Shown here: one piece after another, positions 9,573 through 61,880 of the stretch | How positions within the stretch are numbered: the stretch's first letter is position 1 | Layout of the letters: each line of letters begins with the position of its first letter | Origin: an uncultured Dehalococcoidia bacterium | GTDB taxonomy: Bacteria > Chloroflexota > Dehalococcoidia > DSTF01 > JACRBR01 | Direction of reading: 5' to 3' | NCBI GenBank assembly: GCA_964421985.1 | Contig: CAYQZE010000018.1 | Span: forward strand, 583-64,582 | Length of the DNA stretch: 64,000 nucleotides | The notes under the pieces: generated by a model | Seen by the model: the letters and a program-made list of their open reading frames with translations, nothing else | The model's database searches: none | Told to the model about the DNA's origin: nothing | Made by a program: the position numbers and the translations under genes

Positions 9573-9593
9573 GTCGCCGGTCGCCGGTCGTCG
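9573..9593. repeat. tandem heptad triplet GTCGCCG-GTCGCCG-GTCGTCG directly after the greA stop
   Basis: Direct read of the sequence. It abuts the REP element at 9593. Confidence 0.7.
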
Positions 9594-9618
9594 TAGGGGC
9601 GGACCTGTGTGTCCGCCC
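9593..9618 (+). repeat. REP element (5'-GTAG + 8-bp GC-rich hairpin gggcggac/gtccgccc)
   Basis: GTAGGGGCGGACCTGTGTGTCCGCCC. Same architecture as the REPs at 41948, 57957 and 58259. Confidence 0.6.
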
Positions 9619-19755: not shown

Positions 19756-19771
19756 AAACATGAACGAGCGT

Positions 19772-21074: not shown

Positions 21075-21088
21075 CGAGATGGTCGCCT

Positions 21089-21116: not shown

Positions 21117-21127
21117 TGTCCCATCGC

Positions 21128-21451: not shown

Positions 21452-21498
21452 CAACTAACGCGGCTTATCCAGTACTGGCGGACAAAAGGCGACGAGTC

Positions 21499-21526
21499 GG
21501 TCACCAGTCACCAATCACCAATCACG
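21499..21526. repeat. heptad array GGTCACC-AGTCACC-AATCACC-AATCACG; right terminal inverted repeat of cassette 1
   Basis: Reverse complement reads CGTGATT-GGTGATT-GGTGACT-GGTGACC. Followed by GAGGAGACCAGACG and the ATG of ACAD paralog 3. Confidence 0.6.
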
Positions 21527-21539
21527 AGGAGACCAGACG

Positions 21540-22721: not shown

Positions 22722-22749
22722 CGCCCGTGCCGGTGGATGGGAGTCCACG

Positions 22750-23931
22750 ATGCGATTCAAGTTCACGCCAGCACAAGAAGCATTCCGCACTGAGGTCAAC
22801 ACCTTCCTCAAGGAGACGCTGCCGCCCGACTGGGAGGGCGCGGATAACGCGATCGACGACGAGTCGTACGAGTTCGGGCGCGAGTTCCTGAAGAAGCTAG
22901 CGCCCAAACGCTGGATCGCGCCGGCATGGCCGACGGAGTACGGCGGGCTTGCGCTCTCGCACTGGGACCAGGTCATCTACAACGAGGCGATGGGCTACGC
23001 GCGCGCACCGATCATCAACGCGGCCGCGACGGGCTACCTCGGCCCGACCGTCATTCTCTACGGCAGCGACGAGCAGAAGGCGCAGCACCTGCCAGGCATC
23101 ACCTCCGGTGAAGTGGTGTGGTGCCAGGGGTACAGCGAGCCGAACTCCGGATCCGACCTCGCCTCACTGCAGACGCGCGCGGTGATGGACGGTGACGACT
23201 TTATCCTCAACGGGCAGAAGATCTGGACTAGCCAGGCGCACTACGCCGACTGGATGTTCGTCCTGGCGCGCACCGACCCCGACGCACCGAAGCATCGCGG
23301 CATCAGCTACTTCCTCATGGATATGAAGACGCCCGGCATAAGCGTGCGGCCGCTGGTCAATATGGCGAATGGTGCAGGCTTCAACGAAGTCTTCTTCGAG
23401 AACGTACGCATCCCGAAGTCCGGCCTGTTGGGAGAACTCAACCGCGGTTGGTACATCGCGACCACGACGCTCGACTTCGAGCGCTCGTCGCTGACCGGGA
23501 CGGCGCAGTCGCAACGCTCGCTCGAAGACCTGACGCGATTCGCGAAGACGGAGCGCCAGGCGGGCACCGGCGCCCGGCTCTGGGACAGGCCGGCCGTGCG
23601 GCACACCCTCGCCGACCTGTGGGTGTCGCTCGACGTGACGCGCATGCTGTCGTACCGCGTCGTCAGCATGCAGGCGCGCGGTTTGGTGCCCAACTACGAA
23701 GCGTCGATCATCAAGGTCTTCAATACGGACTATGTGCAGCGACAGGCGCGCGTCGGCCTCGGCCTCATGGGCCTCTACGGCGGACTGTGGGGCGAAGGCC
23801 CTTGGTCGAAGCTGCGCGGCCGCTTCGCGAAGTCCTACGTCGCCACGGTCGGCGCGGCGATCGCCGGCGGCACGACGGAGATCCAGCGCAACATCATCGC
23901 CCAGCGCGGTTTGGGCTTGCCGAGGCAGTAA
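22750..23931 (+). CDS. acyl-CoA dehydrogenase, paralog 4
   Basis: 393 aa. WIAPAWPTEYGG...WCQGYSEPNSGSDLAS...GGTTEIQRNIIAQRGLGLPRQ. Confidence 0.9.
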   Translation: MRFKFTPAQEAFRTEVNTFLKETLPPDWEGADNAIDDESYEFGREFLKKLAPKRWIAPAWPTEYGGLALSHWDQVIYNEAMGYARAPIINAAATGYLGPTVILYGSDEQKAQHLPGITSGEVVWCQGYSEPNSGSDLASLQTRAVMDGDDFILNGQKIWTSQAHYADWMFVLARTDPDAPKHRGISYFLMDMKTPGISVRPLVNMANGAGFNEVFFENVRIPKSGLLGELNRGWYIATTTLDFERSSLTGTAQSQRSLEDLTRFAKTERQAGTGARLWDRPAVRHTLADLWVSLDVTRMLSYRVVSMQARGLVPNYEASIIKVFNTDYVQRQARVGLGLMGLYGGLWGEGPWSKLRGRFAKSYVATVGAAIAGGTTEIQRNIIAQRGLGLPRQ

Positions 23932-23942
23932 TGGTGGCCGAG

Positions 23943-23963
23943 AGGTCAGAAGTCAGAGGTCGG
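23943..23963. repeat. heptad triplet AGGTCAG-AAGTCAG-AGGTCGG; left terminal inverted repeat of four-helix-bundle cassette 2
   Basis: Matches 18 of 21 positions of the reverse complement of the triplet at 24347-24367. Confidence 0.6.
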
Positions 23964-23981
23964 AATGTGACAAGCACGAGC

Positions 23982-24389
23982 GTGATCAAAAGCTTTCGTG
24001 ACCTTCAGGTGTACCAGCGCGGTATGTCGTTGCTGAAGCCGGTGCATGAGCTGACGCGCACGCTGCCAGACTACGAGAAGTACGATCTTGCGAATCAACT
24101 TCGTCGCGCCTGCAAGTCAGTGCCCGCGAACATCGCGGAAGGTTACGCGAAGCGGCGCTCAGCGAAGGAGTTTCGCGCCTACCTGACCAACGCGATGGGC
24201 TCCGCGACCGAGATGGAAGTGCATCTGGAAATCGCACGCGAACTGGAATACATTTCGATCGAAGAGGCCGCGCAGCTAATCGACCAGTACCAGATCCTGG
24301 CGAGACAGCTGTACCGGCTCATCGAGAAGTGGCGCACGCTCGAGATCCGACCTCCGACTTCCGATCTCTCAGCCACCGGAACGGATTGA
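23982..24389 (+). CDS. four-helix-bundle protein (TIGR02436 / 23S-IVS protein family), full-length paralog
   Basis: GTG start gives IKSFRDLQVYQRGMSLL..., aligning with MEKGYEDLEVYRRG of paralog 1. C-terminus QILARQLYRLIEKWRT. TGA overlaps the ATG of ACAD5 (TGATG). Alternative in-frame starts at 23931 and 23967. Confidence 0.7.
   Translation: MIKSFRDLQVYQRGMSLLKPVHELTRTLPDYEKYDLANQLRRACKSVPANIAEGYAKRRSAKEFRAYLTNAMGSATEMEVHLEIARELEYISIEEAAQLIDQYQILARQLYRLIEKWRTLEIRPPTSDLSATGTD
24347..24367. repeat. heptad triplet CCGACCT-CCGACTT-CCGATCT within the 3' end of four-helix-bundle gene 2; right terminal inverted repeat of cassette 2
   Basis: Reverse complement reads AGATCGG-AAGTCGG-AGGTCGG. The 7-nt periodicity is out of codon phase, so this is a DNA-level repeat. 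Confidence 0.6.
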
Positions 24390-25570
24390 TGGACTTCCGA
24401 GATTCTCCCGAAGACGCAGCATTCCGGCAAGAAGTACGCGACTTCCTGCGTGATGAGCTGCCGCACGACCTGCGGGCCGCCGATGACGCGATCCTGGGCG
24501 TGGGCATCGGCGAGGATGAGCGCGAGCGCGACTGGCTGCGGACGCTGGCAAAGCGCGGCTGGGTCGCGCCGGCGTGGCCGAAGGCCTACGGCGGCGCCGG
24601 TCTCTCCGTGATGCAACAGTTCGTCTTCAACGAAGAGATGGCACGCGCCGCGGCGCCGCGGCCGAACTGCCTCGCGATCGGCCTCGCAGGGCCGACGATC
24701 ATCGTGCACGGGACCGAGGAGCAGAAGCGCGAGCACCTCTCGGGCATCCTCTCCGGCGAACAGTTCTGGTGCCAGGGATTCAGCGAGCCGGGGTCGGGAT
24801 CGGACCTGGCGTCGCTGCAGACGCGCGCCGTGGAGGATGGTGACGACTACATCATCAACGGCCAGAAGATCTGGACGTCAGGCGCGCACCGCTCGCAGCG
24901 GATGATGCTGCTGGCGCGCACGGACCCGGACGTACCGAAGCACAAGGGCATCAGCTACTTCCTCCTGAACATGAAGTCGCCGGGCATCACGGTGCGGCCG
25001 CTGACGAACATCGCGGACACGCCGAGCTTCAACGAAGTGTTCTTCGACAACGTACGCGTGCCGAAGAGCGACCTGCTGGGCGAGTTGCACCGCGGCTGGT
25101 ACGTGGCGACGACCACGCTCGATTTCGAGCGCTCGGGCATCATCAATGGCGTTTCCCTGCAGCGGCTCGTGCATGAACTCGCTGCGTTCGTCCGCGATCG
25201 CGATCGCGTGCGGGATGACCCCGGCCTGGAAACCGTCCGACACGAGCTGGCGGACCGGGCGATCGAGGCACGGATCTCTATCGTGCTGTCCTACAGAGTG
25301 GCGACGATGCAAGCGAAGGGCATCGTGCCCAACCAGGAGGCATCGATCACCAAGTTGTTCGGATCTGAGCTGGCGCAGCGCATCGCGCGCACCGGTGTTA
25401 AGCTCAGCGGCCTCTACGGACAGCTGCGGGCGGGGTCGGCGCGCGCGCCGTTGGGCGGGCGGCTGGACGCGATGTATCGCATCGCGGTCGGCTCGACCCT
25501 GGCGGGCGGCACGTCGGAGATCCAGCGCGGCGTGATCGCGCAGCGCGGGCTGGGGATGCCGCGGGGATGA
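24389..25570 (+). CDS. acyl-CoA dehydrogenase, paralog 5
   Basis: 394 aa. MDFRDSPEDAAFRQEVRDFL...GWVAPAWPKAYGGAG...GGTSEIQRGVIAQRGLGMPRG. Confidence 0.9.
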   Translation: MDFRDSPEDAAFRQEVRDFLRDELPHDLRAADDAILGVGIGEDERERDWLRTLAKRGWVAPAWPKAYGGAGLSVMQQFVFNEEMARAAAPRPNCLAIGLAGPTIIVHGTEEQKREHLSGILSGEQFWCQGFSEPGSGSDLASLQTRAVEDGDDYIINGQKIWTSGAHRSQRMMLLARTDPDVPKHKGISYFLLNMKSPGITVRPLTNIADTPSFNEVFFDNVRVPKSDLLGELHRGWYVATTTLDFERSGIINGVSLQRLVHELAAFVRDRDRVRDDPGLETVRHELADRAIEARISIVLSYRVATMQAKGIVPNQEASITKLFGSELAQRIARTGVKLSGLYGQLRAGSARAPLGGRLDAMYRIAVGSTLAGGTSEIQRGVIAQRGLGMPRG

Positions 25571-25664
25571 GGCTGGAAGTGGAAGCAGGAAACGGGATGC
25601 GAGAAGCGAGATGCGCGAACCGAAAGCGATCACGAATCGTGCTGTGCGAGCGGGCGGGTCATCG

Positions 25665-26051
25665 ATGAAGCGTATCGGCCTTGCTCTGGCAATCGCGCTG
25701 GCCATCTACGGCCTGGCCGTAGGCGTCGGTTCGCTGCTGTACGCGACCGGCGCGATATCGACCGGCGCGACGCACAACGACTGCGACCGCGCGCTGATCG
25801 CGCGGACGCTCGGGAAGGCGGACGACGACCTGACGCAGCAGGAGTTGAAGGAGGGGACGCAGACGTGCCTCGACGAGCATCAACTGACGAAAGGGCACGC
25901 CTTTCGCACCGAGTATCTGTTCTGGTCGGCGTGGCCTGCCGTCATCTGCGCGGTCGTGTTCCTGGCGTGGCCGGCGTGGGCGCAGATTCTGCGAACGCAG
26001 GAAGACGCCGATCGCGATGCCGAAGCGAGCCGTCAGCAGATGGGGCAATGA
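25665..26051 (+). CDS. small hypothetical membrane protein
   Basis: MKRIGLALAIALAIYGLAVGV... with two TM helices. Start uncertain (25611 or 25665). Confidence 0.4.
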   Translation: MKRIGLALAIALAIYGLAVGVGSLLYATGAISTGATHNDCDRALIARTLGKADDDLTQQELKEGTQTCLDEHQLTKGHAFRTEYLFWSAWPAVICAVVFLAWPAWAQILRTQEDADRDAEASRQQMGQ

Positions 26052-26139
26052 CCGGGTAGGCAACAACAAGGGATGACTTCCGCCTAAGGCGGATCAATTG
26101 CATAATCTGGATCCGAAGAAAGGAAAGGGGAACGCACAC

Positions 26140-27264
26140 ATGGACCTGGGTCTGTCCGAAGAACAAGAACTGCTGAAGAACGCAGCGCGCGACTTCCTGG
26201 AGAAGGAGTGCCCGGAAACGCTCGTCCGCGAGATGGAGGACGACGAGAAGGGGTACTCCCCTGATCTCTGGAAGAAGATGGCTGAGCAGGGCTGGCAGGG
26301 GCTGCTGATCCCCGACGCCCACGGCGGCGCGGGATTCGGCTACCTCGACCTGATCATCCTGATCGAGGAGTTCGGGCGAGCCCTGGTGCCGGGTCCGTTC
26401 ATCTCGACGCAGGTCGGCGGCGTCTTGCCGCTACTCGAGGGCGGGACCGACGATCAGAAGAAGCAGTACCTGCCGAAGATCGCCAGCGGCAACGCCATCT
26501 GGACCCTCGCCTACACCGAGCCCTCCGCCCGCTTCGACACCGAGGGCGTGGCGCTCGAAGTGAAGGAGGACGGCAACGACCTCGTGCTCAATGGCACGAA
26601 GCTCTTCATCCGCGACGCGAACGTCGCCGACTTCTTCACGGTCGTCGGCCGCAAGCCGGGCACGAAGGGCGACGACGGCATCACGCTCGTCATCGTCGAT
26701 GCGAAGACCGCCGGCATCAGCCAGACGCAACTCAAGACCATCGCCGCCGACAAGCAGGCCGAAGTGAAGTTCGAGAACGTCCGCGTGCCGAAAGCGAGCA
26801 TCATCCCGGGCGGCGCCGCCACCCTCAAGAAGGTGCAGCGCAAGGCGACCGTGCTGGAGTGCGCGTACCTCGTCGGACTGGCGCAGATGGACTTCGAGGT
26901 CAGCGTGCAGTACGCGAAGGACCGGATCCAGTTCGGCCGGCCGATCGGCTCGTTCCAGGCGATTCAGCACAAGGCCGCCGACATGGTGACCGACGTCGAC
27001 GGCTCCCGCTTCATCATGTACCGCGCCGCCTGGTCCGTCGACCAGGACGAATCCGACGCCGACATGAACGTGCACATGGCGAAAGCGTGGTGCAGCGAGG
27101 CGACGCGCCGCGTCGTGGCGCATGGCCAGCAGATCCACGGTGGCATCGGCTTTACGAAGGACTACAAGATCCAGCTCTACTTCCGCCGCCAGAAAGCGTC
27201 CGAACTGGCCTGGGGCGACGGCGACTACCACCGCGAGCTGGTGGCGTCGGAGCTGGCGATCTAG
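26140..27264 (+). CDS. acyl-CoA dehydrogenase (distinct sixth ACAD, short-chain-like)
   Basis: 374 aa with classical ACAD architecture (TEPSARFDTEG...QIHGGIGFTKDYKIQLYFRR). ATG 26140 with AAAGGAAAGGGG ribosome-binding site. Confidence 0.85.
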   Translation: MDLGLSEEQELLKNAARDFLEKECPETLVREMEDDEKGYSPDLWKKMAEQGWQGLLIPDAHGGAGFGYLDLIILIEEFGRALVPGPFISTQVGGVLPLLEGGTDDQKKQYLPKIASGNAIWTLAYTEPSARFDTEGVALEVKEDGNDLVLNGTKLFIRDANVADFFTVVGRKPGTKGDDGITLVIVDAKTAGISQTQLKTIAADKQAEVKFENVRVPKASIIPGGAATLKKVQRKATVLECAYLVGLAQMDFEVSVQYAKDRIQFGRPIGSFQAIQHKAADMVTDVDGSRFIMYRAAWSVDQDESDADMNVHMAKAWCSEATRRVVAHGQQIHGGIGFTKDYKIQLYFRRQKASELAWGDGDYHRELVASELAI

Positions 27265-27342: not shown

Positions 27343-28314
27343 CTAACCGCCCATCTCGGCTTCTACATCGTGCACGCTCACGGATCCCGGTGCGGCGCCG
27401 TCGCGCGCCATGCGCGATGCGATCGCCTGCAGCGCGGCGTTCGCGCGCGTGGCGACGCCGTGCAGCCTGCCCAGCAGGGCGATCTCGCCGTTGAGGTAGT
27501 CGGTCTCGATGCTGCCGGTCTTGCGGGCGAGGCTCTGCCACGACGACCCGCCGGCGCGGGCATGCCCCGCGATCTCGCGCATCGGCGACATCGGCCTGCG
27601 CCGCTCGTTCATCTCGTCGTCCGACGCCCAATCGATGCCGGCGGCGCGATAGCAGGCGATCGCTTCGTCGCGCAGGCGGGCGTGGAGTGCGCGCGTGTTG
27701 CCGCCGAGGCCGCATGAAGCCTGGACGGCGTTGCCGAGGTTCGAGAGCAGCTTGGCGTACTTCCAGCGCATGATATCGGCCGTCGGATGCGCGCTGATGC
27801 CCGACGCGTCGAGGTCCGCGGTGACGCGTGCGATCAGCGCGTCGCTGCCCGACGGATAGCAACCCGCATCGAGCACGCCGCTGACGGGTGCGCAGTGTGC
27901 TTGCACACGCCCGGGATCGAGATGCGTCGCGGGCAGCAGGACGAGCATCCCGTAGACGTTGGCGAACCGCCGCGCCGCCAAACGCTCGTTCTCGACGCCG
28001 TTCTGGGCGCAGACGACGGGCACGTGCGGTCCGGCCGTGGTGTGGAGGTCGGCGAGCGCGGCGGCCGTGTGCTGCGTCTTCATCGTCATCAGCACGACGT
28101 CATCCCCGGTGAACCGCAGCTCGGACGGATGGGCGACGGCGCTGATGCGCAGCGTCGTGCTCGTATCCGGCGTCTCGAGTGTCAGGCCGTGGCCGCGAAT
28201 GGCATCGAGGTGCCGCCCGCGCGCGATCAGCACGACGTCGTGCCCTTGCTGGAAGAGCCGCCCGCCGATGACGCCTCCGACGGCGCCGGCACCGTAGATG
28301 ATGTAGCGCGTCAT
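27343..28314 (-). CDS. 2-dehydropantoate 2-reductase (ApbA/PanE) family protein
   Basis: MTRYIIYGAGAVGGVIGGRLFQQGHDVVLIARG Rossmann N-terminus. The start is set at the MTRY methionine inside the longer ORF. Confidence 0.8.
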   Translation of the reverse strand: MTRYIIYGAGAVGGVIGGRLFQQGHDVVLIARGRHLDAIRGHGLTLETPDTSTTLRISAVAHPSELRFTGDDVVLMTMKTQHTAAALADLHTTAGPHVPVVCAQNGVENERLAARRFANVYGMLVLLPATHLDPGRVQAHCAPVSGVLDAGCYPSGSDALIARVTADLDASGISAHPTADIMRWKYAKLLSNLGNAVQASCGLGGNTRALHARLRDEAIACYRAAGIDWASDDEMNERRRPMSPMREIAGHARAGGSSWQSLARKTGSIETDYLNGEIALLGRLHGVATRANAALQAIASRMARDGAAPGSVSVHDVEAEMGG

Positions 28315-28722
28315 GCTTGATTTTGAACCACAGAGGCACAGAGGCACAGAGGCTTTGGATGATGGTGGATGGTGGAGATCAACGGGGCGGGCAAGAGCGA
28401 TTGGAACGGCCGCCCGAGCGCGAACGGCCTCTCTTCTCGTCTGCGCACCCGGATTGCCGGAGAGGTCTATGTATTCGAACGCACGGCGTACAGCCGATGA
28501 CGCCTCCGACGGCGCCGGCACCGTAGATGATGTAGCGCGTCATGCTTGATTTTGAACCACAGAGGCACAGAGGCACAGAGGTTTTGGTGGGTGGTGGATG
28601 GTGGAGACCAACGGGGCGGGCAAGAGCGATTGGGAACGGCCGCCCGAGCGGGAACGGCCTCTTTTCTCATCTGCGCGCCCGGATTGCCGGAGAGGTCTAT
28701 GTATTCGAACGTACGGCGTACA
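28264..28722. repeat. tandem duplication of a 229-bp unit (copies 28264-28492 and 28493-28722, about 95% identical)
   Basis: The unit spans the first ~17 codons of the panE-like gene, the intergenic CACAGAGG x3 element and the last ~13 codons of the hydrolase-cyclase gene. The junction sits at a shared gccg microhomology. It generates the pseudo-ORFs MTRYIIYGAGAVGGVIG... and ...QRLYAVRSNT. Confidence 0.85.
28323..28378. repeat. TTGAACC + CACAGAGG x3 element, copy 2 (8 nt upstream of the panE-like start on the minus strand)
   Basis: ttttgaaccACAGAGGCACAGAGGCACAGAGGctttggatgatggtgg. Copy 3 at 28552-28608 lies inside the duplicated unit. Confidence 0.75.
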
Positions 28723-30043
28723 GCCGCTGCGGCTCCTCGATGCCTTTGAGCGCATGCTCGCCACGATCGTCGAACGCGACGCCGGCCGACGTACGCCCGA
28801 GCGAGCGCACGACATCGGATACCAAGGTCTCGCCCGGCGCGGATGCGCTCGCAACGCGCGCGGCGATGTTCACGGCGCCGCCGTGGACGTCCTGCCCGTC
28901 GCGGATCACGTCGCCGGCGTGGATGCCGACGTGCAGTTGCAGATCGAGTCCGGCTGCCGCTTCGTGGCACCGCAGGGCACCCGCGATGGCGTCCTTCGCC
29001 GCATCGAACACCGCCATCACGCCATCGCCCAGCACGCGGCCTTCGACGACGCGCCCGCCGGCCGCCGCCAGCGCTTCGCGCACGCCGCGATGCAGCGCAT
29101 CGGATCGCCCGTGAAACGCCGCATCACCGATGCGCTCCGTGATCGCCGTCGAATCGACGATATCGGCGAAGAGGATGATGGCGGTGCCAACCGTGGCCGT
29201 GGGCGTCGCTTCAGTCATTTCGTGGTCCGCCGACGGCTCGCGGCCAAGCACGAACCGGGTGACGGCCCCGGCATCCTCGCGCCAGCCGAGCGCGGTATTC
29301 ATCGTCATCAGTCGTGCCCCGGCGACTCCGGCGACGACGACGCGTGCGAACTCGTTTCCGAGGCCGGAATACTGCTGGATCAGCGTAGGCGCTTGCACCC
29401 GCGCCAGCATCGGCGTGACGTCCTGCTCGCGTAGCGCCGCCAGGTAGCGCCGCAGCGTCGCTGGAGTAGTGGCTGAGCGCATGAGGCGGGCGAGCGCCGG
29501 CGCATCATCGCCACTCGCGTTCGCGGCTGTGAGCGCCGTTGCGTGCGTCAGCGTGTACAGCTCCCACTTCTCATCACCCATGGCCCGGAACGACTCCAGT
29601 CCTTGCATGGTTGGTAGGCGCCGATACCATTCGGCGCCGTTCACAAACGGGGTCGTGAGGATGAGGTGCGTCAGCCGCGTGGGATATTGAGCCGCGTAGG
29701 CGATACACGCGGGCGTGGCGAACACCATGCCCCACAACGCGAACCGTTCGAGCTGGAGGTGCTCACGCAGTGCCTCGAGGTCGGCGACCTGGCTTTCGAT
29801 CGAGAAATCTTCGACGTCACGGTCGGACATGCCCATGCCGCGCATGTTGTAGCGGACGAGATGGAAGCTGTCGCCGACGAGTTGGAGCGACGGCTCTCGC
29901 CACTCCATCTCCCATTGCAGGTCGAGGTGCGCCCAGATGTTGGACGAGAAGACGAGCGGCACACCTTCGCCCATATCGGTATAGGCGATGTGCGTGCCGT
30001 CAGCGCTGCGCACATACTGGACCTGCGGTTGCATGATCGGCAT
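28697..30043 (-). CDS. alpha/beta-hydrolase domain fused to a class III adenylate/guanylate cyclase domain
   Basis: 448 aa. N-terminal alpha/beta-hydrolase fold (HLVRYNMRGMGMSD...ALWGMVFATPACI). C-terminal cyclase motifs ILFADIVDSTAIT...VGIHAGDVIRDGQDVHGGAVNIAARV. Confidence 0.8.
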   Translation of the reverse strand: MPIMQPQVQYVRSADGTHIAYTDMGEGVPLVFSSNIWAHLDLQWEMEWREPSLQLVGDSFHLVRYNMRGMGMSDRDVEDFSIESQVADLEALREHLQLERFALWGMVFATPACIAYAAQYPTRLTHLILTTPFVNGAEWYRRLPTMQGLESFRAMGDEKWELYTLTHATALTAANASGDDAPALARLMRSATTPATLRRYLAALREQDVTPMLARVQAPTLIQQYSGLGNEFARVVVAGVAGARLMTMNTALGWREDAGAVTRFVLGREPSADHEMTEATPTATVGTAIILFADIVDSTAITERIGDAAFHGRSDALHRGVREALAAAGGRVVEGRVLGDGVMAVFDAAKDAIAGALRCHEAAAGLDLQLHVGIHAGDVIRDGQDVHGGAVNIAARVASASAPGETLVSDVVRSLGRTSAGVAFDDRGEHALKGIEEPQRLYAVRSNT

Positions 30044-33994: not shown

Positions 33995-34110
33995 TCCGGA
34001 GGTGCGGCTGCTGACGAATCTGGCGAATCAGACGGGGCTTATCCGGTGCTGGCGAACAAGAGGCGGCGCGTAGGCCACCAATCACCAGACACCAATCACA
34101 AGGAGACCAG
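33995..34110 (+). pseudogene. 3' relic of a four-helix-bundle (TIGR02436-like) gene with its terminal heptad array, placed just 5' of larC
   Basis: About 80% nucleotide identity to 21461-21540. Translation ...LLTNLANQTGLIRCWRTRGGA* parallels the C-terminal helix of the 4HB paralogs. Followed by heptads GGCCACC-AATCACC-AGACACC-AATCACA and AAGGAGACCAGAC. Confidence 0.45.
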
Positions 34111-34154
34111 ACCGGCGCTACGGCGCGGTACGATGGTGGACGGAGGATGCGCGT

Positions 34155-41947: not shown

Positions 41948-41971
41948 GTAGGGGCGTAGCCTGCTGCGCCC
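41948..41971 (+). repeat. REP element type 1 (GTAG + 9-bp hairpin gggcgtagc/gctgcgccc)
   Basis: GTAGGGGCGTAGCCTGCTGCGCCC. One G-T difference from the copies at 57957 and 58259. Confidence 0.6.
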
Positions 41972-41993: not shown

Positions 41994-42016
41994 GTAGCGC
42001 GGGCTTCAGCCCGCGC
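41994..42016 (+). repeat. REP element type 2 (GTAG + gcgcgggc/gcccgcgc hairpin, loop ttca)
   Basis: GTAGCGCGGGCTTCAGCCCGCGCGG. Paralogous to the copy at 19772. Confidence 0.55.
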
Positions 42017-53735: not shown

Positions 53736-56465
53736 TCAGGACACCACGCGGATACGCGAGCCGTTCCCGCACGTCTCGACGAGGATCTGGTCGGGAAAAT
53801 TGTCGCGATTGGTGAACGCGTCGAGGTGCGATACGACGATCACCTTATCCATGTGCGTCGCCAGTTGCCGCAGCTCATCCACCATCTGCTGCTGGCCGGC
53901 GGCGTCGAGGCTGCCGAAGCCCTCGTCGATGACGATCGAGCGCATGCCGCCGGCCCCCGCATACTGCCCGATGCCCGACGCGATGGCGACCGCGCAGCGG
54001 AACTTCTGTGAGCCGGACAGCACCTTCGGGCTACGTGGCTCTCGCATGCACGTGGAGTCGATCGCCAGCAGCTCCAGCAGGTCGCCCTTGGGGCGCTCGA
54101 TGGCGAGCTGCAGCGTGCCGCCGGTGAGCCGCTGCAGGAACGCGTTCGCGTTGCTGGTGATCGCGTTCAGCGCGTCCGTGATCAGCACGCCCTGCAGCCC
54201 TTTCTTGCCGAGCAGATCGGCGAGCTTCTTCAGTCGCTTGATCCGTACCTCGCCGTGCGCGCGTTCTGCCTGCTTGCGCGCCAGCTCGTCGATGCGCGCT
54301 TCGAGGAGCGTGAGCCGCTGTTGCGCGGCCTGCGCCGTGCGCCGCGCTGCATCCGCTTGGGCTTCCGCGCCGGCGGCGATGACGCGCGCGGTCGCCTCGT
54401 CGATGCGGTGGTCCGCCGGGATCGACGCGACCTCGCTCTGCTTCGCCGCGCGCTCGCCGCTGCAGGCCGCGTGGTCGCGCAGCGCCTCATCGAGGGAGGA
54501 CTTGCGTTGCGGCGCACCAGCGAGATCCTGGCGGTGCGAGCGCAGCGTGGCAAGCGTGCCAGCCGCGTCGTCCAATGCAGGCTCCGCCAGCGCGCCAAGA
54601 CCGCGGGCGACCTCCTCGGCGGCCTGATGATGCCCGACAGCTTCCTGCGTCCGATGCGCCGCCGTCGCCTCGAGTGCCGCTCGCTGGTCGCGGGCCGTCG
54701 CGAGCGCATCGCGCGCTGCCGCTTCTGCCGCGCGCGACGCATCCAGCTGACGTCGCGCGCCCGCAAGCGCGACCTGCAACGACTCGAGTTGACGCACCGT
54801 GCGCGCGTGCGCCTCCTGCGCCGGTCCGACGTCCTTGTTGCGCCCGTTGAGCTTCGCCTCATGCGCGGCGAGCACCGTCGTCGCGCGCTCGTGCTCCAGC
54901 ACGGCGGCTGCGCGCTGTCCATCAAGACGGTGCAGCTGCTGCTCGACCGTCTTCATGCCCTCGGCGATTTCGTCGTGCCGCTGCCGGGCGGCGGCTCGGG
55001 CAGCGGCCGCCCGTTTCTCCGCGGCACGTGCGCCCGTCGCCTGCTGCTGCGCGGCCGCGAGCTGCGCCGTCAGCTCGCCGATCTGTTCCTTCGCCGCCTT
55101 CTTGTCGATCGGATGCCCGCAGCGTGTACAGGTCGATTCCTTTGCGGCGGCTTTGCGGTCGGCCAGCTGTTGCCTGACGGCGCCCGCGGCTGCATCGGCC
55201 TCGGCAGCTGCCGTGCGCGCCGCGTCGAGCGTGGCATCCGCCTGTTCGGCGGCCATCCGCGCGGCGGCGGCATCACGCGCGACGGACTCCCGGCCGGCCG
55301 ACAGCTCGCGGAGCTGTGCGTTCGCTTGCGTCCGCTGCTCGGCGATGGCCGCGACGCGTGCCTGGCCCTCGAGCACCGCACCTGCGATCTGCGCGAAGTC
55401 ACGCGCGTCGCGTTCCGCCGCCGCCGTCGCATCGTGCTCGCGCTCGTCTTTACTCACCTTCTCCGTCAGCGCTCGGACCTGCGCTGCCGCCGCGACGTGC
55501 TCCGCCGTCAGCGCATCGATGTCCAGCGCAGCGGCCCGCTTGCGCGAGTCGTTCGCCGCGCCCTCGGCCTGTTGCGCGTCGGTGAGCAGCGACGCGATCC
55601 GCTGCACGGAGTCGATCGCGCCCTCCAGCGTCTCGAACAGCGCCGCATCCTTCTCGATCTGGTCGCGCTCAGCGATCAGGATCTCGGCTCCGGCAAGCCG
55701 CGCATCGAGCGCCGCGATCTCGCCGGCCAGCCGCGCATGGCGCTGCGCGTCCGCGAGGAGCGTGCGCGCCGCCTGTGCGGCGGCGGCGGCCTGCTGCTCG
55801 CGTTCCAGCGTCGCCGTCAGTTCCTCCCGCAGGCGTATGACGGCGTCGGCATCGACGCCCTCGAATCCTTTGAGGTCTTCCGTGAGCTTGTCGAGAATGA
55901 CCTTCTCCACTTTGTGCGCGTCGCGCGCGCGCTTCTCCAGCGCCTCGTACTCGTGCAGCCCGATCAGGCCGCTGACGATGTCGAATCGCGGCTTCGGGTC
56001 GGCGTCGAGGAAGCGCGTGGCGTCGCCCTGCTGCAACAGAAACGAGGACGTGAACGCCTCGGGCGTCAGTCGCACGATGTGGTCGATGGCGCGTTTCAGC
56101 GCGTCTTCCTTCTGGGTGCCGGGCACCTGCGTCCAGTCGCTCGCGCCGGCGTCCCAGATCCAGAGGCTCTGATCGCGCTCCGCCTCCTTGCGGCCGCGGC
56201 TTCTGCGCACGAGGTAGCGCTGCCCGTCCGTCTCAAACTCGAAGTCGACTGACAGCCGGTCCATGTCTTGCGAGATGAGCTGCGCCGCGTGCACCTTGCC
56301 GAGGCGATGCAGCCCGTAGAGCGCAAACGTGATGGCATCGAAGATGGACGACTTGCCGGCGCCGTTCGCACCGCAGATCGCGATCAGCGGGCCGCCGCCG
56401 AAGTCGGCGACCTGCTCGTCGCGATAGCGCATCCAGCCGCTCATGCGGACGCTCAGCGGGATCAT
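53736..56465 (-). CDS. sbcC: SbcC/Rad50-family SMC-like ATPase with a CxxC zinc hook
   Basis: 909 aa from ATG 56463-56465. Walker A GANGAGKSS. Central coiled coil with CTRCGHP hook. C-terminal signature LSGSQKFRCAVAIA and Walker B VIDEGFGSLD. Confidence 0.85.
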   Translation of the reverse strand: MIPLSVRMSGWMRYRDEQVADFGGGPLIAICGANGAGKSSIFDAITFALYGLHRLGKVHAAQLISQDMDRLSVDFEFETDGQRYLVRRSRGRKEAERDQSLWIWDAGASDWTQVPGTQKEDALKRAIDHIVRLTPEAFTSSFLLQQGDATRFLDADPKPRFDIVSGLIGLHEYEALEKRARDAHKVEKVILDKLTEDLKGFEGVDADAVIRLREELTATLEREQQAAAAAQAARTLLADAQRHARLAGEIAALDARLAGAEILIAERDQIEKDAALFETLEGAIDSVQRIASLLTDAQQAEGAANDSRKRAAALDIDALTAEHVAAAAQVRALTEKVSKDEREHDATAAAERDARDFAQIAGAVLEGQARVAAIAEQRTQANAQLRELSAGRESVARDAAAARMAAEQADATLDAARTAAAEADAAAGAVRQQLADRKAAAKESTCTRCGHPIDKKAAKEQIGELTAQLAAAQQQATGARAAEKRAAAARAAARQRHDEIAEGMKTVEQQLHRLDGQRAAAVLEHERATTVLAAHEAKLNGRNKDVGPAQEAHARTVRQLESLQVALAGARRQLDASRAAEAAARDALATARDQRAALEATAAHRTQEAVGHHQAAEEVARGLGALAEPALDDAAGTLATLRSHRQDLAGAPQRKSSLDEALRDHAACSGERAAKQSEVASIPADHRIDEATARVIAAGAEAQADAARRTAQAAQQRLTLLEARIDELARKQAERAHGEVRIKRLKKLADLLGKKGLQGVLITDALNAITSNANAFLQRLTGGTLQLAIERPKGDLLELLAIDSTCMREPRSPKVLSGSQKFRCAVAIASGIGQYAGAGGMRSIVIDEGFGSLDAAGQQQMVDELRQLATHMDKVIVVSHLDAFTNRDNFPDQILVETCGNGSRIRVVS

Positions 56466-57646
56466 CCGTCGGCTCCTGCCGGCAGAGCGCGCAGTTCTGT
56501 CACCAACTCCAGCAGCGCGGCGCGCTCGTCTTCGGGCATCTGCTGCTCGCCGAGGTAGCGGCGTACCGTTTCCTCGACGTCCGCCGGATTCAAGCCGGCG
56601 ACCGTCGGGACGAGCGGCGCCGCGTCCGTCCACGCGCAGTCGACGTTGCCGTACAGCCGCGGGAAGAGTTGGCGCGCCCGGTCCAGCAGCGGCGCCAGAT
56701 ACGTCCCCTGAGGCACCTGCAGCGTCAGCTTCACGAGCGTCACGTCCGGCCGTGCGATTGTCGCCGCACCGGCCACCAGAGTCGTTTCGTCCGACGCGGT
56801 GATGGCAGCGATCGGAGTCGGGTCGAGCGGCAGCGACGTGACCTCGCGCACGCCGGCCGGGCCGATGTCGGCGAGCAGGACGCGCGGCTGGTAGTCACGC
56901 TCGCCCACATCCATCCGGTCGAGCGCGCCGACGTAGTAGAAGTGCCCGCCACCGAGTTGCTCGGCCTTGTGGATGTGACCGACGACGGTCAGCTCGAACT
57001 CCGGGAAGGCGCCACGCGGCACGACCACATCGTCGCGCGGCGTGATGCGATGCGCCTTCACCGTGGTGCCGGTGACGGTGACATGCGTGAGCAGTACCGT
57101 CGGCAGCCGCTGTTCGGCCGACGCTTTCCGCAGCTCCTCCATCTTCTCGACGAAGAGCTTGGTGAGCTGTTCGTTGCGCTGCGCGACACCGCCCGCATCA
57201 TCGTGCTGGAGTTCGTAGCGCGCGAGCGTGGGGAACGGCAGCATCGCGAAGTTCAGGCGCTCGCCGCGCGCTTCGACGGTGAGCAACTCGGGACGCGTGC
57301 GCAAGGCGATGCGTTCCCCATCGGCGGGCGCGTGCGCACCCAGCCAGGTGCTGGCCATGTCCATGAAGTAGTCGCGATCATGGTTCCCCGCGACAGCGAC
57401 GATGCGCAGCCCGCGCGTCAATGGCCCGGCCAGCGCCTCCATCATCGCCCCGACGGCAGCCCGGGCCGCGCCCCGCTCCTGCGCCTCGAACACGTCGCCC
57501 GCGATCGCCAGCACGTCGACCGCGTGCTCGTCGATGTACGCCGCGATCATCCGGAGCTGCCGCGCCTGATCTGCCAACCGAGGCGCCGGATTCGCGCCGG
57601 CCAGCGAGTATCCCAGGTGCCAGTCGGCGGAGAACAGCACCTTCAT
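56462..57646 (-). CDS. sbcD: SbcD/Mre11-family nuclease
   Basis: MKVLFSADWHLG...AGDVFE...GNHD...calcineurin-like phosphoesterase motifs. Start overlaps the sbcC ATG (ATGA). Stop of the upstream RAYT gene overlaps its ATG. Confidence 0.85.
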   Translation of the reverse strand: MKVLFSADWHLGYSLAGANPAPRLADQARQLRMIAAYIDEHAVDVLAIAGDVFEAQERGAARAAVGAMMEALAGPLTRGLRIVAVAGNHDRDYFMDMASTWLGAHAPADGERIALRTRPELLTVEARGERLNFAMLPFPTLARYELQHDDAGGVAQRNEQLTKLFVEKMEELRKASAEQRLPTVLLTHVTVTGTTVKAHRITPRDDVVVPRGAFPEFELTVVGHIHKAEQLGGGHFYYVGALDRMDVGERDYQPRVLLADIGPAGVREVTSLPLDPTPIAAITASDETTLVAGAATIARPDVTLVKLTLQVPQGTYLAPLLDRARQLFPRLYGNVDCAWTDAAPLVPTVAGLNPADVEETVRRYLGEQQMPEDERAALLELVTELRALPAGADG

Positions 57647-58242
57647 CTGGCGACCTCTGCGCGACCAACGACCGGCGGCGCGGCCTTGCTTAGCCAATAG
57701 TCGAATTCGCGTTCTACGGCGTCGGGTCTCCCGGCCGGATTCTCGCGGTCGAAGGACCACCGCGTGGGGTTGTCGACGATGTACTGGCGGATGCGTCGAA
57801 GCGCGCCTTCGTCCCGAATGATGTGCTCGTGGTAGTTGCGTTGCCACACGATGAACTCACTGCCGGCCAAACGCCGGAGATCCCGAGTCACACGCGCCTT
57901 AAATGAGCGAACGATCGCGCCCAGCGCGCCCGCTTCGACACGAGGCCGCGCATGCTGTAGGGGCGCAGCCTGCTGCGCCCGGTCGGCGGTTGCATCGCGA
58001 TCCCCAAGAAACAAGATGCCATGCACGTGGTTCGGCATGACGACGAACTCGTCGATCTCGATGTACGGATGATGGTTTGGAATGTCCGTCCAAGCGACTT
58101 CTATGATCTGACGCATTCGCAGGTCCGCGAACAATGCTTGGCGACCGCTGGTACAGATCGTGATGAAATAGCCGCCGGGCGTACGGTAGTCGTAGTCCCG
58201 GAGGCGCACGGATCGCCGGTTTGGCGGCACCGAGCCGGTCAT
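57643..58242 (-). mobile_element. REP-associated tyrosine transposase (RAYT; IS200/IS605-like Y1 HuH transposase family, TnpA_REP)
   Basis: 199 aa. RRSVRLRDYDYRTPGGYFITICT resembles the RAYT N-terminus. HuH motif PNHVHGILFL. Catalytic Tyr region RNYHEHIIRDE. A REP copy lies inside the CDS (57957-57980) and another 17 nt upstream (58259-58282). Confidence 0.8.
57957..57980 (+). repeat. REP element type 1 inside the RAYT coding sequence
   Basis: GTAGGGGCGCAGCCTGCTGCGCCC. Encodes ...QQAAPLQ... within a linker of the RAYT protein. Confidence 0.65.
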
Positions 58243-58258
58243 CGCGATCGCCCGTTCC

Positions 58259-58282
58259 GGGCGCAGCCCGCTGCGCCCCTAC
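58259..58282 (-). repeat. REP element type 1 (inverted orientation) just upstream of the RAYT start
   Basis: Reverse complement reads GTAGGGGCGCAGCGGGCTGCGCCC. Confidence 0.65.
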
Positions 58283-58316
58283 AGTGCCTCCGCGATCGTT
58301 CAGGAAGCTGCCCCAT

Positions 58317-60266
58317 CTACATCTCCAGAGACTGCGCCTTGCGCTTGCCGTCCGGCGACGGCGTCACCTTCCCGGCGTCGATGCCGGGCGCGCGCTCGGC
58401 GCCGGCGAGGCAGTCCGGCGGCGTGTCGGTTGCCTCTTCTGGGCGCATCGCCCAGGGCGGGCGCGGCACCTTCACGTGCAGTGCCTCGCGAAAGTTCGGT
58501 GCGACGATGACTTTCTCCTCCGGGCTCAGCCGCAGCGCGAGCTTGCGGTCGCCCTCGGAGAAGCCGCGCCAGATCGCATCCGCCAGCTCCTGCCCGCCGG
58601 AGCGGCCCAGCACGCGCGTCTGGCTGTTCTCGATCACGACGTCCGACACGCGCGACCCCTGCTGCTGCGCGCCGAAGAGGATGATGCCGCGTGAGCGCAT
58701 CTGGCTGGCGACGTACTCGAACAGCCTGGTGATCGCGTCCGATGCGCCGCGCGGCGCGTAGCGGTTGAGTTCGTCGATGACGACGAGAAAGGTCTCGTAA
58801 CGCGCTGCGTGCGGGCCGCTCCGCCACTGCACGAGCTGGTTGAGCGCCGCCGCGATGACGAAGCGCTGCAGGTGCGCGTCGTGGATCGACTGGATGTCGA
58901 TGACGCTGACATCCTCCTGCATCGTCACCAGCGAGAGCGGCGCGCCCTCGATGTCGTCGCGGCGCAGCAGCCCCGACGTCGGTCCGAGCACGCGCGCGAG
59001 CCTGCGCCACAGCGCCTGGATGGTGGAGTTGCTCATGCTGCGCAGGCTGTCGTCGTCGACATCCTTCGACTCAGGTTGCGCCTTCATTTCGATGTAGTTC
59101 AGCAGGTCCTGGAATGTCAGCACCGGGTTGCCGCCGGCGAGGTCGTTCTTGCTGTTGAACGCCCGCTCCAGCGAGTCGGTCAGCTGGCGGCGGGCGGCGA
59201 CGCGCGCGTCGGGTGCGCCGCCCAGCCGCTCCTCCAGGCTCTGCGCCTTCGTGCGGCCGACGGACAGCCGGTGGCTGAGCCAGTTGATCAGCGTGACGAT
59301 GTTATCGTTCGCGCGCGTCTCCTCCGAGAACAGCAGATCGAAGAGGCCGAAATCGATGATGTCCTTCAGTGACCACGAGTACGGCTTCACATCGCCCGGG
59401 CGCTCCGTCGTGATCGGCAGTGGCGCGCCGCTTCGTTGCGATGTCTCGGGCGCGTAGTAGGCGATGCTGCGGAAGATGTCGGGCGACGCCACGCCCATCT
59501 CGCGCCACGTCCGCAGGTCAGCCTCCGTGAACTTGTTGGACCAGCGGTCGAGCCAGAAGAGGTCGAACCCCTTGACGTTGAAGATGATCGCCTTGATCCG
59601 CGGACGCTGGCCGCTTCCCACCATGCCGGCGCCGCGCGTCTTCACGGCGTTGATCGTCTGCGACGCGGCGAGCGTGAGGAACGACGACTTCGTGCCGGAA
59701 CCGGCCGCGCCGTTGACGTTCAGGTGCCCCGACTGCGCGCCCAGCAGGAAATCCTGATCGAGGAATGCTCGGCCCGCGGTGGAGTCCCCGCCGTTGCGGA
59801 TCAGACCGACGCAGACGCCGCGCTCGTCGGCGTACTGGTCGATCTCGTACGCGCGCTCGGCGTCGCGCTCCCCGCACGAAAACACGGTGCTGCCTTCGAT
59901 GGGCGGCGCCAGTTTCGGTGGGAAGGCGTTGACCACGCGCGCCTTTGCGTACGTCACGCCGTCGCGGTCCAGCATCAGGTCATCGGCGATCGGATCGCCG
60001 TCGTGCGCCGCCAGCTCCATGTGCATGGAGCTGATGGTCGAGCGGCGGTAGACCTGCTCGACGACGCCGAACAGCTCGACCTCCGCGCCGCCCATGACCG
60101 TCGGCACGCGCACGATCTGCGTCTGCTCGACGAGCTGCCCGGGCGCCAGCCAGAAGTAGAACTCATCGCCGTTCGCCTCCTGCCCCAGCGGGCAGCCGAT
60201 ACGCCCGACCGCCTGGGGTTCGGGTGCGTCTGGCGTGTGGCCGTTGGCGGAGGAATCCATCGTCAT
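58317..60266 (-). CDS. HerA-like FtsK/HerA-superfamily ATPase (bipolar DNA helicase homologue)
   Basis: 649 aa. P-loop NGAAGSGTKSS. Walker B LVVIDELNRYAP. C-terminal GAQQQGSRVSDVV sensor-like region typical of HerA/FtsK/VirB4 ATPases. N-terminal ~140 aa is consistent with a HAS-barrel. Gene order nurA...herA. Confidence 0.65.
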   Translation of the reverse strand: MTMDSSANGHTPDAPEPQAVGRIGCPLGQEANGDEFYFWLAPGQLVEQTQIVRVPTVMGGAEVELFGVVEQVYRRSTISSMHMELAAHDGDPIADDLMLDRDGVTYAKARVVNAFPPKLAPPIEGSTVFSCGERDAERAYEIDQYADERGVCVGLIRNGGDSTAGRAFLDQDFLLGAQSGHLNVNGAAGSGTKSSFLTLAASQTINAVKTRGAGMVGSGQRPRIKAIIFNVKGFDLFWLDRWSNKFTEADLRTWREMGVASPDIFRSIAYYAPETSQRSGAPLPITTERPGDVKPYSWSLKDIIDFGLFDLLFSEETRANDNIVTLINWLSHRLSVGRTKAQSLEERLGGAPDARVAARRQLTDSLERAFNSKNDLAGGNPVLTFQDLLNYIEMKAQPESKDVDDDSLRSMSNSTIQALWRRLARVLGPTSGLLRRDDIEGAPLSLVTMQEDVSVIDIQSIHDAHLQRFVIAAALNQLVQWRSGPHAARYETFLVVIDELNRYAPRGASDAITRLFEYVASQMRSRGIILFGAQQQGSRVSDVVIENSQTRVLGRSGGQELADAIWRGFSEGDRKLALRLSPEEKVIVAPNFREALHVKVPRPPWAMRPEEATDTPPDCLAGAERAPGIDAGKVTPSPDGKRKAQSLEM

Positions 60267-60688
60267 CGGCGCTCCAGTACCTCACCCCCCGACCCCCTCT
60301 CCACGACGTGGAGAGGGGGGGCAGGAGCACCGAGCGTGCGCAGTATGTCACCGAGAACTTGCTTGATGTTCTCGAGGACGGTGTGGTTGGTTACGCGAAG
60401 AAATCGGATGCCGCGTTGCTTCAGGTATTCCTGACGCGCGAAGTCTTCGTGCACCCGTCGATCGTGCACGGGCCCGTCGACTTCGATGACAACGCCTAGT
60501 TCGACACAATAGAAGTCCACAATGAACCGGCCGATCGGATGCTGGCGACGGAACTTCCATCCGCCCAGCCGTTTGCCTCGCAAACGCTCCCACAACAGCG
60601 CCTCCGCCTGCGTCGGCTCATGCCGCATCGAGCGGGCGAGCTCGCGCTGAGCGGTCCAACTCCGGCCATGCGTTGTGTAGCGTGTCAC
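60263..60688 (-). CDS. DUF559 (Vsr/restriction-endonuclease-like fold) domain protein
   Basis: 141 aa. EALLWERLRGKRLGGWKFRRQHPIGRFIVDFYCVELGVVIEVDGPVH is the canonical DUF559 core. GTG start with AGGAG ribosome-binding site. Stop overlaps the herA ATG. Confidence 0.7.
   Translation of the reverse strand: MTRYTTHGRSWTAQRELARSMRHEPTQAEALLWERLRGKRLGGWKFRRQHPIGRFIVDFYCVELGVVIEVDGPVHDRRVHEDFARQEYLKQRGIRFLRVTNHTVLENIKQVLGDILRTLGAPAPPLHVVERGSGGEVLERR
60293..60319. repeat. 27-bp perfect palindrome CCCCCTCTCCACG-A-CGTGGAGAGGGGG (inside the 3' end of the DUF559 ORF, upstream of herA)
   Basis: Read directly from the sequence. Partner copy at 60710-60734. Confidence 0.85.
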
Positions 60689-60709
60689 AAGAACTCTCCT
60701 CGTGCGGCT

Positions 60710-60734
60710 CCCCTCTCCACGTCGTGGAGAGGGG
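60710..60734. repeat. 25-bp perfect palindrome CCCCTCTCCACG-T-CGTGGAGAGGGG (between the nurA stop and the DUF559 start)
   Basis: Read directly from the sequence. Together with 60293-60319 it brackets a ~440-bp DUF559 unit. Confidence 0.85.
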
Positions 60735-60788
60735 CTGGGGGTGAGGTGCCCCGGCCTGCACCGACGTGTCGCCTTCCCAACAATCCGC

Positions 60789-61880
60789 TCATCTGAACAT
60801 CCGGTGCAGCCGCGGGATCAGCGCGTCCAGGTCGGGCAGGATGGCGTGCAGGTGATCTTCGACCCGCACGATCGGCTCCACGCTGATGCCGGCGCGCGCA
60901 TACGCCAGGTCGCGGTGGCGCAGGCGATACAGGTACGCCGCGAGCCCCGACAGGTAATCCGGCATGTCGTGCGCGTGCGCGCTCTCGACGTACGCCAACG
61001 GCGCCGTCAGGCGGACGATGCCGTACGACGGCGAGGTGCCGGCTTCGCCTGACAGCCGCACGTAGGTGTTCACCAGGTCGACATGCTGCACGGTCCGCAG
61101 GACGAATGCCGGCGTGCGCTCGCCCGGCTTCAGCGCGTAGGTCAGCTCCTGCAGGCCCGCAGGGAGGTACGCCGTCATCTGGCGCTTCACCAGGCCGACG
61201 ATCGGCACGTTGTGCGTCGGCGCGGTCGCGAGGCGGCGTTCGAGCAGGCCGTCCATCAGCGTCGACTTCGCGAAGTCGGCGAGCATGACAGCGCGTTCGG
61301 CTTCCTCCATCGCTTCCATCGCCAGGCTGCGCGTGCCGCGGCGCATCGTATCGAAATCGCCGTGCACCGAGCCCAGCGGGCGTTCCAGCAGGTCGACGTC
61401 GATCGCCCGCAGTGCGTGGAACGCCTCGGCGATCGCGTCGCGCTCGATGCCATCGGAGTACACGCACAGCACCTTGCGCGTGAGCGCCCCGGCGCCGCGC
61501 TTCGTCGCACGCCCGTCGATCTCAAGCGAGGCGGCCGACACGGCGGCGGCGATGATCGGCCTGCGCCGGAAGTCGACGAGCAGCGATCCGACGGTCTTCG
61601 ACTTGATCGAGCCGTCCACGAAGCGCACGGGCGCGTCGTCCGGCGGCGTGCCCGGCGCGATCGGCGCCCAGGCGTGCTGCGGAAGCTCGTATTCGAGTTC
61701 GAGTCCGTCACGCGGCGTGTCGTCCTCGTCGTCCGCCTCGTGTCCGGGAAACGGCGGTACTGACGCATCGTTGAGCGCGCTTGGCGCATACGCCGAGAAG
61801 ATCGTGCGCGGGGGGGCCGATGCGGGCACGAAAGCTCCGGATGCGTTATGTCGCACGTTTGTTCTAGGTGCTTGCTGCAA
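60789..61880 (-). CDS. NurA-like nuclease (RNase-H-fold 5'-3' nuclease partner of HerA)
   Basis: 363 aa. After a low-complexity N-terminal extension, VRFVDGSIKS matches NurA motif I (catalytic Asp in xxDGS). Size and acidic-residue spacing are consistent with a NurA domain. Assignment rests mainly on this motif and on synteny with the HerA-like ATPase. Confidence 0.55.
   Translation of the reverse strand: MQQAPRTNVRHNASGAFVPASAPPRTIFSAYAPSALNDASVPPFPGHEADDEDDTPRDGLELEYELPQHAWAPIAPGTPPDDAPVRFVDGSIKSKTVGSLLVDFRRRPIIAAAVSAASLEIDGRATKRGAGALTRKVLCVYSDGIERDAIAEAFHALRAIDVDLLERPLGSVHGDFDTMRRGTRSLAMEAMEEAERAVMLADFAKSTLMDGLLERRLATAPTHNVPIVGLVKRQMTAYLPAGLQELTYALKPGERTPAFVLRTVQHVDLVNTYVRLSGEAGTSPSYGIVRLTAPLAYVESAHAHDMPDYLSGLAAYLYRLRHRDLAYARAGISVEPIVRVEDHLHAILPDLDALIPRLHRMFR

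Follow-up and report, generated by a model that had tools for sequence, protein, structure and literature searches.

We describe here an intact gene for a REP-associated tyrosine transposase (RAYT, or TnpA_REP; REP, repetitive extragenic palindrome) that lies, together with its own REP element, inside a group of DNA-repair genes on a 64,000-nucleotide stretch of contig CAYQZE010000018.1 (the whole stretch is referred to below as the window). The gene occupies 57643..58242 on the minus strand, encodes 199 amino acids, and is found between herA and sbcD in a row of genes that are all read from the minus strand, in the order nurA-[DUF559]-herA-[REP-RAYT]-sbcD-sbcC. RAYTs are the best-known case of a transposase kept by bacteria as a single, vertically inherited gene. 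The explanation that we favor, and hold with high confidence as a whole, is that the gene encodes a HuH/Y1 single-strand DNA endonuclease of TnpA_REP subclass 2.4 (RAYT Group 4), predicted to be in working order, and that the REP-RAYT cassette would have entered the herA/sbcD junction a single time, in the ancestor of what is probably a sub-lineage of the Dehalococcoidia, to be inherited vertically under purifying selection ever since.

The family assignment made in a preliminary description of this DNA, which had read the 199-residue protein as a RAYT, is confirmed by both profile and structure. The NCBIfam model NF047646 (REP_Tyr_transpos; curated cut-off 80 bits) matches the protein with 82 bits, the Pfam model Y1_Tnp matches it below threshold, and a Foldseek search with the AlphaFold model of the protein (predicted local distance difference test [pLDDT] score 85) returns Escherichia coli TnpA_REP (4ER8) as the best match in the PDB, with a root mean square deviation of 2.0 A over 138 columns, ranked above all TnpA structures of IS200/IS605 insertion sequences (ISs), which are significant matches as well. 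The NF047646 match comes in two stretches split by a linker, a hint of an insertion in the middle of the protein, and the sole low-confidence internal segment of the structural model (residues about 81-105) is this same linker, which is encoded by a REP. The HuH motif, as first read, is H72-V-H74, aligned with H59/H61 of the E. coli enzyme. The catalytic tyrosine had been placed in NYHEHIIRDE, but the tyrosine there is Y137, which aligns with F98 of E. coli; it is Y154, in the motif RQYIVDNP, that aligns with the catalytic Y115, and N158 of the same motif aligns with the metal ligand N119 (residue roles according to PMC3479197). In an alignment of 30 homologs H72, H74, Y154 and N158 are invariant. 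A look-up by exact sequence turned up no identical product among recorded genes. There is one RAYT copy in the window, and the analogy with the E. coli protein suggests that it is enzymatically active.

Two copies of one REP family, which we call REP-A, are associated with the gene. The first, at 57957-57980 on the plus strand (GTAGGGGCGCAGCCTGCTGCGCCC), is a 24-nt hairpin with a GTAG foot that lies in frame within the gene, with GTAG on the gene's antisense strand; it encodes R-A-Q-Q-A-A-P-L-Q (codons 88-96) in the linker that leads from the HuH strand to the helix after it, which bears out the earlier observation of a perfect REP inside the open reading frame (ORF), encoding an AAPLQ linker. 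The second, at 58259-58282 on the minus strand (GTAGGGGCGCAGCGGGCTGCGCCC), is an inverted copy with GTAG on the gene's sense strand, situated in the 74-nt spacer between herA and RAYT; its inverted orientation had been recognized correctly, and its distance from the RAYT ATG (58242) is 16 nt rather than the 17 nt given initially. Together the two copies form a 28-nt inverted repeat (57955-57982 / 58257-58284) with 93% complementarity, and as single-stranded DNA the REP hairpins are predicted to be stable (-7 to -12 kcal/mol).

The order herA-REP-RAYT-sbcD recurs in six related metagenomic loci (L081, L082 [with L083 and L084], L085, L166, L167 and L168), and the closest homologs of the RAYT are all located at the herA/sbcD junction. 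Across these loci the identity to the window is 49-65% for RAYT, 82-94% for HerA and 70-86% for SbcD, and the pairwise identity matrices of the three proteins are congruent, grouping the window with L081, L166 and L167, L082 with L085, and then L168. The ratio of nonsynonymous to synonymous divergence (dN/dS) for RAYT against the six orthologs is 0.17-0.28, similar to that of sbcD (0.12-0.30), although these values are rough because synonymous divergence (dS) is near saturation. Four outgroup loci (L170-L173; HerA identity 68-80%) have an empty site: herA adjoins sbcD, at a distance of 2-80 nt or overlapping it in a GTGA, with no RAYT between them and no REP-A in their 64 kb of sequence, and in L170-L172 the order nurA-herA-sbcD-sbcC is uninterrupted. 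Six filled junctions, congruent identity patterns and four empty outgroup sites thus make one old insertion of a REP-RAYT cassette, followed by vertical retention, the simplest reading. A target-site duplication was looked for at the herA/sbcD junction, where the sequences are too diverged to judge. The placement of the sub-lineage in the Dehalococcoidia is probable from how NCBI labels homologs of HerA and NurA with 64-84% identity. A more distant relative of the RAYT (L169, 53% identity) sits at another location, with REPs before, inside and after the gene, and in a survey of the wider family, comprising the loci of 160 relatives among the matches listed from genome and metagenome contig collections (36-49% identity, many phyla), a RAYT is found next to sbcD in none. 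The nurA-herA-sbcD-sbcC setting of the RAYT is new, without a report in the literature that we searched.

Within this setting the RAYT stop codon overlaps the sbcD start, as had been noted in the preliminary description, in an ATGA (TGA plus ATG) at 57643-57646 on the minus strand, and the overlap (ATGA or TTGA) is kept in five of the six relatives. The same description spoke of a translational fusion into the operon; the two proteins are in fact separate, and such an overlap points to coupling, not fusion. It also spoke of an sbcDC repair operon, and while the embedding is real, the operon concerned is the four-gene nurA-herA-sbcD-sbcC cluster. ATGA overlaps are present at three of its junctions (DUF559/herA, RAYT/sbcD and sbcD/sbcC), and an AGAGG is found 7 nt before the sbcD ATG, within the 3' end of RAYT. 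That the RAYT frame runs as far as the sbcD start makes it probable that RAYT is co-transcribed with the operon and that translation of sbcD is coupled to it, and we regard both as plausible. Scanning for promoters and terminators gave one promoter-like site, ahead of nurA, and detected no terminator separating herA, RAYT and sbcD; because the counts of the scan are at chance level, this is weak evidence. In one relative, L085, a 200-nt AT-rich spacer (8680-8880) separates RAYT from sbcD, and a TTGACA-like hexamer within it suggests that sbcD has there acquired a promoter of its own.

Given this arrangement, one may ask whether the RAYT was recruited as a partner of the break-repair machinery, its co-expression and coupling being selected because SbcCD and HerA-NurA process RAYT cuts, 5'-phosphotyrosine-DNA intermediates and extruded hairpins. 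We consider this quite unlikely. SbcCD does cut hairpins and DNA ends with bound protein, a RAYT under purifying selection has stayed between herA and sbcD in seven of seven loci of the sub-lineage, and the retained overlap with sbcD points in the same direction; in addition, Di Nocera et al. noted that intragenic REPs are often found in replication and repair genes. However, among the approximately 160 surveyed loci of the wider family the RAYT adjoins sbcD, sbcC or nurA in none, and only one (L058) has even a weak herA-like match (26% identity) nearby. The operon of the nearest outgroups works without a RAYT, and RAYT and sbcD are uncoupled in L085. The operon also tolerates an unrelated DUF559 gene with the same ATGA overlap, as well as other genes between nurA and herA, and these further insertions suggest that the junctions are simply permissive. 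Finally, RAYTs in general keep to a conserved place in the chromosome (PMC5581495). A further proposition, that in this lineage the RAYT is functionally tied to the repair operon and that the in-gene REP is not just a tolerated insertion but an obligatory cis element (a master copy or a site of autoregulation), is in our estimate unlikely; if true, it would mean that RAYT expression is locked to SbcCD and HerA-NurA, which would clear its hairpins and tyrosyl-DNA ends or use its cuts. As a dated single insertion with both filled and empty sites, inside an operon for hairpin and end processing and overlapping sbcD, the locus would be a convenient natural experiment for deciding between mere tolerance of a RAYT and a link to DNA repair.

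The in-gene REP turns out to be a property of the whole subclass. The peptide RAQQAAPLQ is aligned with peptides of the G-A-x-x-x-A-P type in all 30 homologs, P94 being invariant. In the wider survey, 148 of the 160 loci could be analyzed, and a perfect palindrome of at least 8 bp lies between the HuH and WQ motifs in 123 of them (at least 12 bp in 74), compared with 4 for an N-terminal control segment of equal length and 12 for a C-terminal one, both from the same genes. These palindromes are typically of the form GTAGGGGC...GCCCCTAC, with inner stems that vary by locus, and a further copy of the in-gene palindrome is present no more than 700 nt away, 5' of the gene in 41 loci and 3' of it in 33. 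A first set of loci gave 86 self-matches in 0.88 Mb, whereas cross-locus controls gave 12 matches in 4.46 Mb. Quentin, Siguier, Chandler and Fichant (2018, BMC Genomics 19:475; PMC6006769) describe an in-frame REP in tnpAREP as unique to subclass 2.4. This subclass, the RAYT Group 4 of Bertels et al. (2017), is characterized by NH[IFV]H / WQ / YIxNNP and by proteins of about 194 amino acids (PMC6006769). With NHVH, WQ, YIVDNP and 199 amino acids the window RAYT fits this subclass, one position off (D for N). The in-ORF REP is therefore real but, being a described hallmark of subclass 2.4, already known, and it leaves the classification unchanged. As a separate observation, some relatives have the in-gene REP in more than one copy: two tandem REPs are present in L166 (875-969), L167 (3412-3506) and L168, by a 75-nt duplication encoding RAQQAAPLQRSRP twice, and also in the proteins P0002, P0003, P0007, P0009 and P0018, and five copies are present in L041, from which it appears that the linker expands by REP-sized units.

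The in-gene REP is, moreover, constrained, or repeatedly homogenized, as nucleic acid and not as peptide. Over the nine codons of the REP, third positions are kept at 57 of 63 sites in seven comparisons, compared with 39-49% elsewhere in the gene, and the codons GCT and CTA are kept, as the hairpin and its CTAC foot require. In L081 and L168 the upstream and in-gene copies alike have undergone a compensatory change of the stem (GCAGC/GCTGC to GCAAC/GTTGC), which alters the peptide from QQA to QRV. It is this combination, conserved third positions together with a compensatory stem change that alters the peptide, that leads us to place the constraint at the level of the nucleic acid. PMC6006769 considered REP insertions in the gene to be probably of little impact; a DNA-level constraint goes slightly beyond that view and sharpens the question of the role of the REP. 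The same evidence bears on the idea that the in-ORF REP is a recent, neutral chance insertion of this genome, or that the gene is a decaying relic. REPs do enter genes in frame, and the segment that this one encodes is predicted to be disordered, as such an origin would allow; but the REP is at the same position in seven of seven loci with the order herA-RAYT-sbcD and in 83% of the 148 distant homologs surveyed, conservation of synonymous sites is much higher in the REP than in other parts of the gene, the REP stem has changed in a compensatory manner, and the gene itself retains invariant catalytic residues and a dN/dS of about 0.2, all of which make either version very improbable.

An ordinary transposase of an active IS200/IS605 element that landed in the operon by chance is the least credible alternative, one to which we give almost no weight: the weak Y1_Tnp (IS200-like) match and the significant Foldseek matches to IS200/IS605 TnpA structures would agree with it, but NF047646 is matched above cut-off, no structure matches better or more tightly than TnpA_REP, a TnpB-like ORF is absent beside the gene, as are distinct left and right subterminal hairpins and IS605-type ends, the hairpins on its flanks are GTAG REPs, which are also found elsewhere by themselves, without a transposase, and the same-site orthologs have diverged to 49-65% identity in step with host genes, so that the original preference for a RAYT over an IS200 TnpA stands.

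REPs also occur in the window away from the RAYT gene, and they fall into three families rather than the two subfamilies proposed at first. Three copies of REP-A are present, compared with 0.02 expected by chance (allowing up to three mismatches); the third is a dispersed copy at 41948..41971 on the plus strand, with one mismatch, intergenic and 18 nt after a stop codon. A second family, REP-B (GTAGCGCGGRCTTCAGYCCGCG), likewise has three copies for 0.02 expected by chance. One of them, at 41994..42015 on the plus strand, begins 22 nt past the end of the dispersed REP-A and has the same orientation, so that the two, with starts 46 nt apart, form a pair resembling a bacterial interspersed mosaic element (BIME). 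The other two REP-B copies, at 19772-19793 (plus strand) and 19815-19836 (minus strand, three mismatches), form an intergenic inverted pair resembling a REP doublet forming a hairpin (REPIN). The element at 9593..9618 on the plus strand (GTAGGGGCGGACC...GTCCGCCC, intergenic) has a stem that differs from those of both REP-A and REP-B and hence constitutes a third family, REP-C; its stem is similar to the in-gene palindromes of another RAYT subgroup (L043, L071 and L080). The dispersed REPs are intergenic and lie about 17-25 nt past the stop codons of plus-strand ORFs. In the window, a GTAG with a perfect stem of 8 bp or more directly after it is found seven times, compared with 0.28 times in simulated sequence. 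Of the seven REP-like elements listed in the preliminary description, those at 9593, 19772, 41948, 41994, 57957 and 58259 are upheld and the weak one at 40280 (a 6-bp stem that belongs to no family) is not, and the REP-B copy at 19815-19836 is an addition to that list. The GTAG hairpins at 29614 and 53122, which are two of the seven with a perfect stem and lie within long ORFs, and the one at 40088 were likewise considered and rejected, because they belong to no family.

By analogy with E. coli TnpA_REP, the mechanism of which serves as our model (PMC3479197), the enzyme would bind the REP hairpin together with its GTAG on single-stranded DNA and would cut and rejoin DNA nearby through Y154. 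Such activity, which from sequence identity may be directed at REP-A, would maintain a sparse REP-A population of about one dispersed copy per 60 kb. Dispersed REP-A amounts to two copies in about 125 kb (the window plus related loci), the copy other than that at 41948 being L085 16081, and this density is consistent with the modest repeat numbers usual for RAYT Group 4 (Bertels et al. 2017).

Several points weigh against the explanation that we favor. There is no RAYT for REP-B or REP-C in the window, so that the pairing of a REP family with this RAYT is drawn solely from identity with the copies at the gene. The genome-wide number of REP-A appears low, as extrapolated from about 125 kb of related DNA. 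Values of dS are 1.2-2.2 for RAYT and 0.43-0.93 for herA and sbcD, and it is the saturation of the former that makes the dN/dS estimates rough; furthermore, the synonymous divergence of RAYT is about twice that of herA and sbcD despite the congruent identity patterns, which is beyond a simple model of vertical inheritance. Last, the 200-nt spacing between RAYT and sbcD in L085 means that coupling is not obligatory.

The host genes around the insertion are as follows, all on the minus strand. sbcD, encoding an Mre11-like nuclease of 394 amino acids (56462..57646), has an N-terminus that aligns with the sbcD model from residue 1 onward, and its stop overlaps the ATG of sbcC, encoding a Rad50-like ATPase (53736..56465), in an ATGA at 56462-56465. 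herA (58317..60266; 649 amino acids) matches HerA of PDB entry 7F6D over its full length (E = 6e-43). nurA is a 363-residue ORF at 60789..61880, limits that are those of the ORF, with the true start probably further downstream; it matches NurA of 7F6D both by family profile (E = 2e-5) and by Foldseek of the model against 7F6D_G (E = 1.3e-14). The gene between nurA and herA (60263..60688) encodes a DUF559 (Vsr-like) endonuclease, and its stop overlaps the herA ATG in an ATGA. It is flanked by near-identical palindromes, CCCCTCTCCACG[A/T]CGTGGAGAGGGG, at 60287-60318 and 60710-60741, and looks like a second insertion, a small mobile cassette in the same operon. A DUF559 of 68% identity is found in L081, upstream of a cupin gene and herA, and the contents of the nurA-herA spacer vary among the relatives (cupin, a 234-residue ORF or DUF559). 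The cluster nurA-herA-sbcD(mre11)-sbcC(rad50), at 53736-61880 in the window and also in L170-L172, is of an archaeal type in a bacterial lineage, probably of the Dehalococcoidia. We rejected a reading of the region as a defense system, for which PADLOC gave generic matches of SMC/LmuB type to SbcC and a weak match to HerA.

Elsewhere in the window, Rfam and tRNA scans of its whole length found no RNA genes. The region 18500-27000 contains five to six tandem paralogous genes of about 400 amino acids each, the repeat families D1-D8 (60-90% identity, spacing 1.2-1.7 kb), with the REP-B pair located between the first two genes. A 229/230-bp tandem duplication with 94-96% identity is present at 28264-28729 (families D9 and D11), and an 81-nt direct repeat with 84% identity, rich in CACCAATCACCA, is present at 21458-21538 and 34032-34112, in each case just upstream of an ORF start; it may be a shared leader or regulatory element.

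Compared with known systems, the window RAYT is closest to TnpA_REP subclass 2.4 (Group 4), with which it shares its length (about 194-199 amino acids), the NHVH form of the HuH motif, WQ and YIxxNP, long GTAG REPs beside the gene in modest copy number, an in-frame REP in the variable, peripheral linker that separates the HuH motif from the Tyr motif, and a distribution over Chloroflexi-type and many other phyla. It differs in that its REPs are single-footed (GTAG at one end), with the upstream copy in sense and the in-gene copy in antisense orientation, in that it has no downstream REP, the frame running instead into the sbcD start, and in that the cassette is fixed inside the nurA-herA-sbcD-sbcC operon. 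With E. coli TnpA_REP (YafM, 4ER8; subclass 2.2/Group 2) it has in common the fold, the positions of the HuH, Tyr and Asn residues and a GTAG-footed hairpin as target; identity is 22%, however, the linker of the window protein is longer by about 26 residues, W162 takes the place of H123, and the E. coli gene has BIMEs on both flanks and no internal REP, whereas the window gene contains one. The IS200/IS605 TnpA proteins (IS608 and ISDra2) likewise have the HuH/Y1 fold and use subterminal hairpins on single-stranded DNA, but those elements are multi-copy and mobile, with distinct left and right ends and often a TnpB, whereas the window RAYT occupies one fixed site, diverges with its host and has hairpins that occur alone. 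As regards the setting, the NurA-HerA plus Mre11-Rad50 clusters of archaeal and Deinococcus type likewise have the four genes in one co-directional, overlapping array, and the window HerA and NurA match the Deinococcus radiodurans complex 7F6D; unlike those clusters, the cluster in the window is interrupted by DUF559 and RAYT, each of which overlaps the next host gene in an ATGA.

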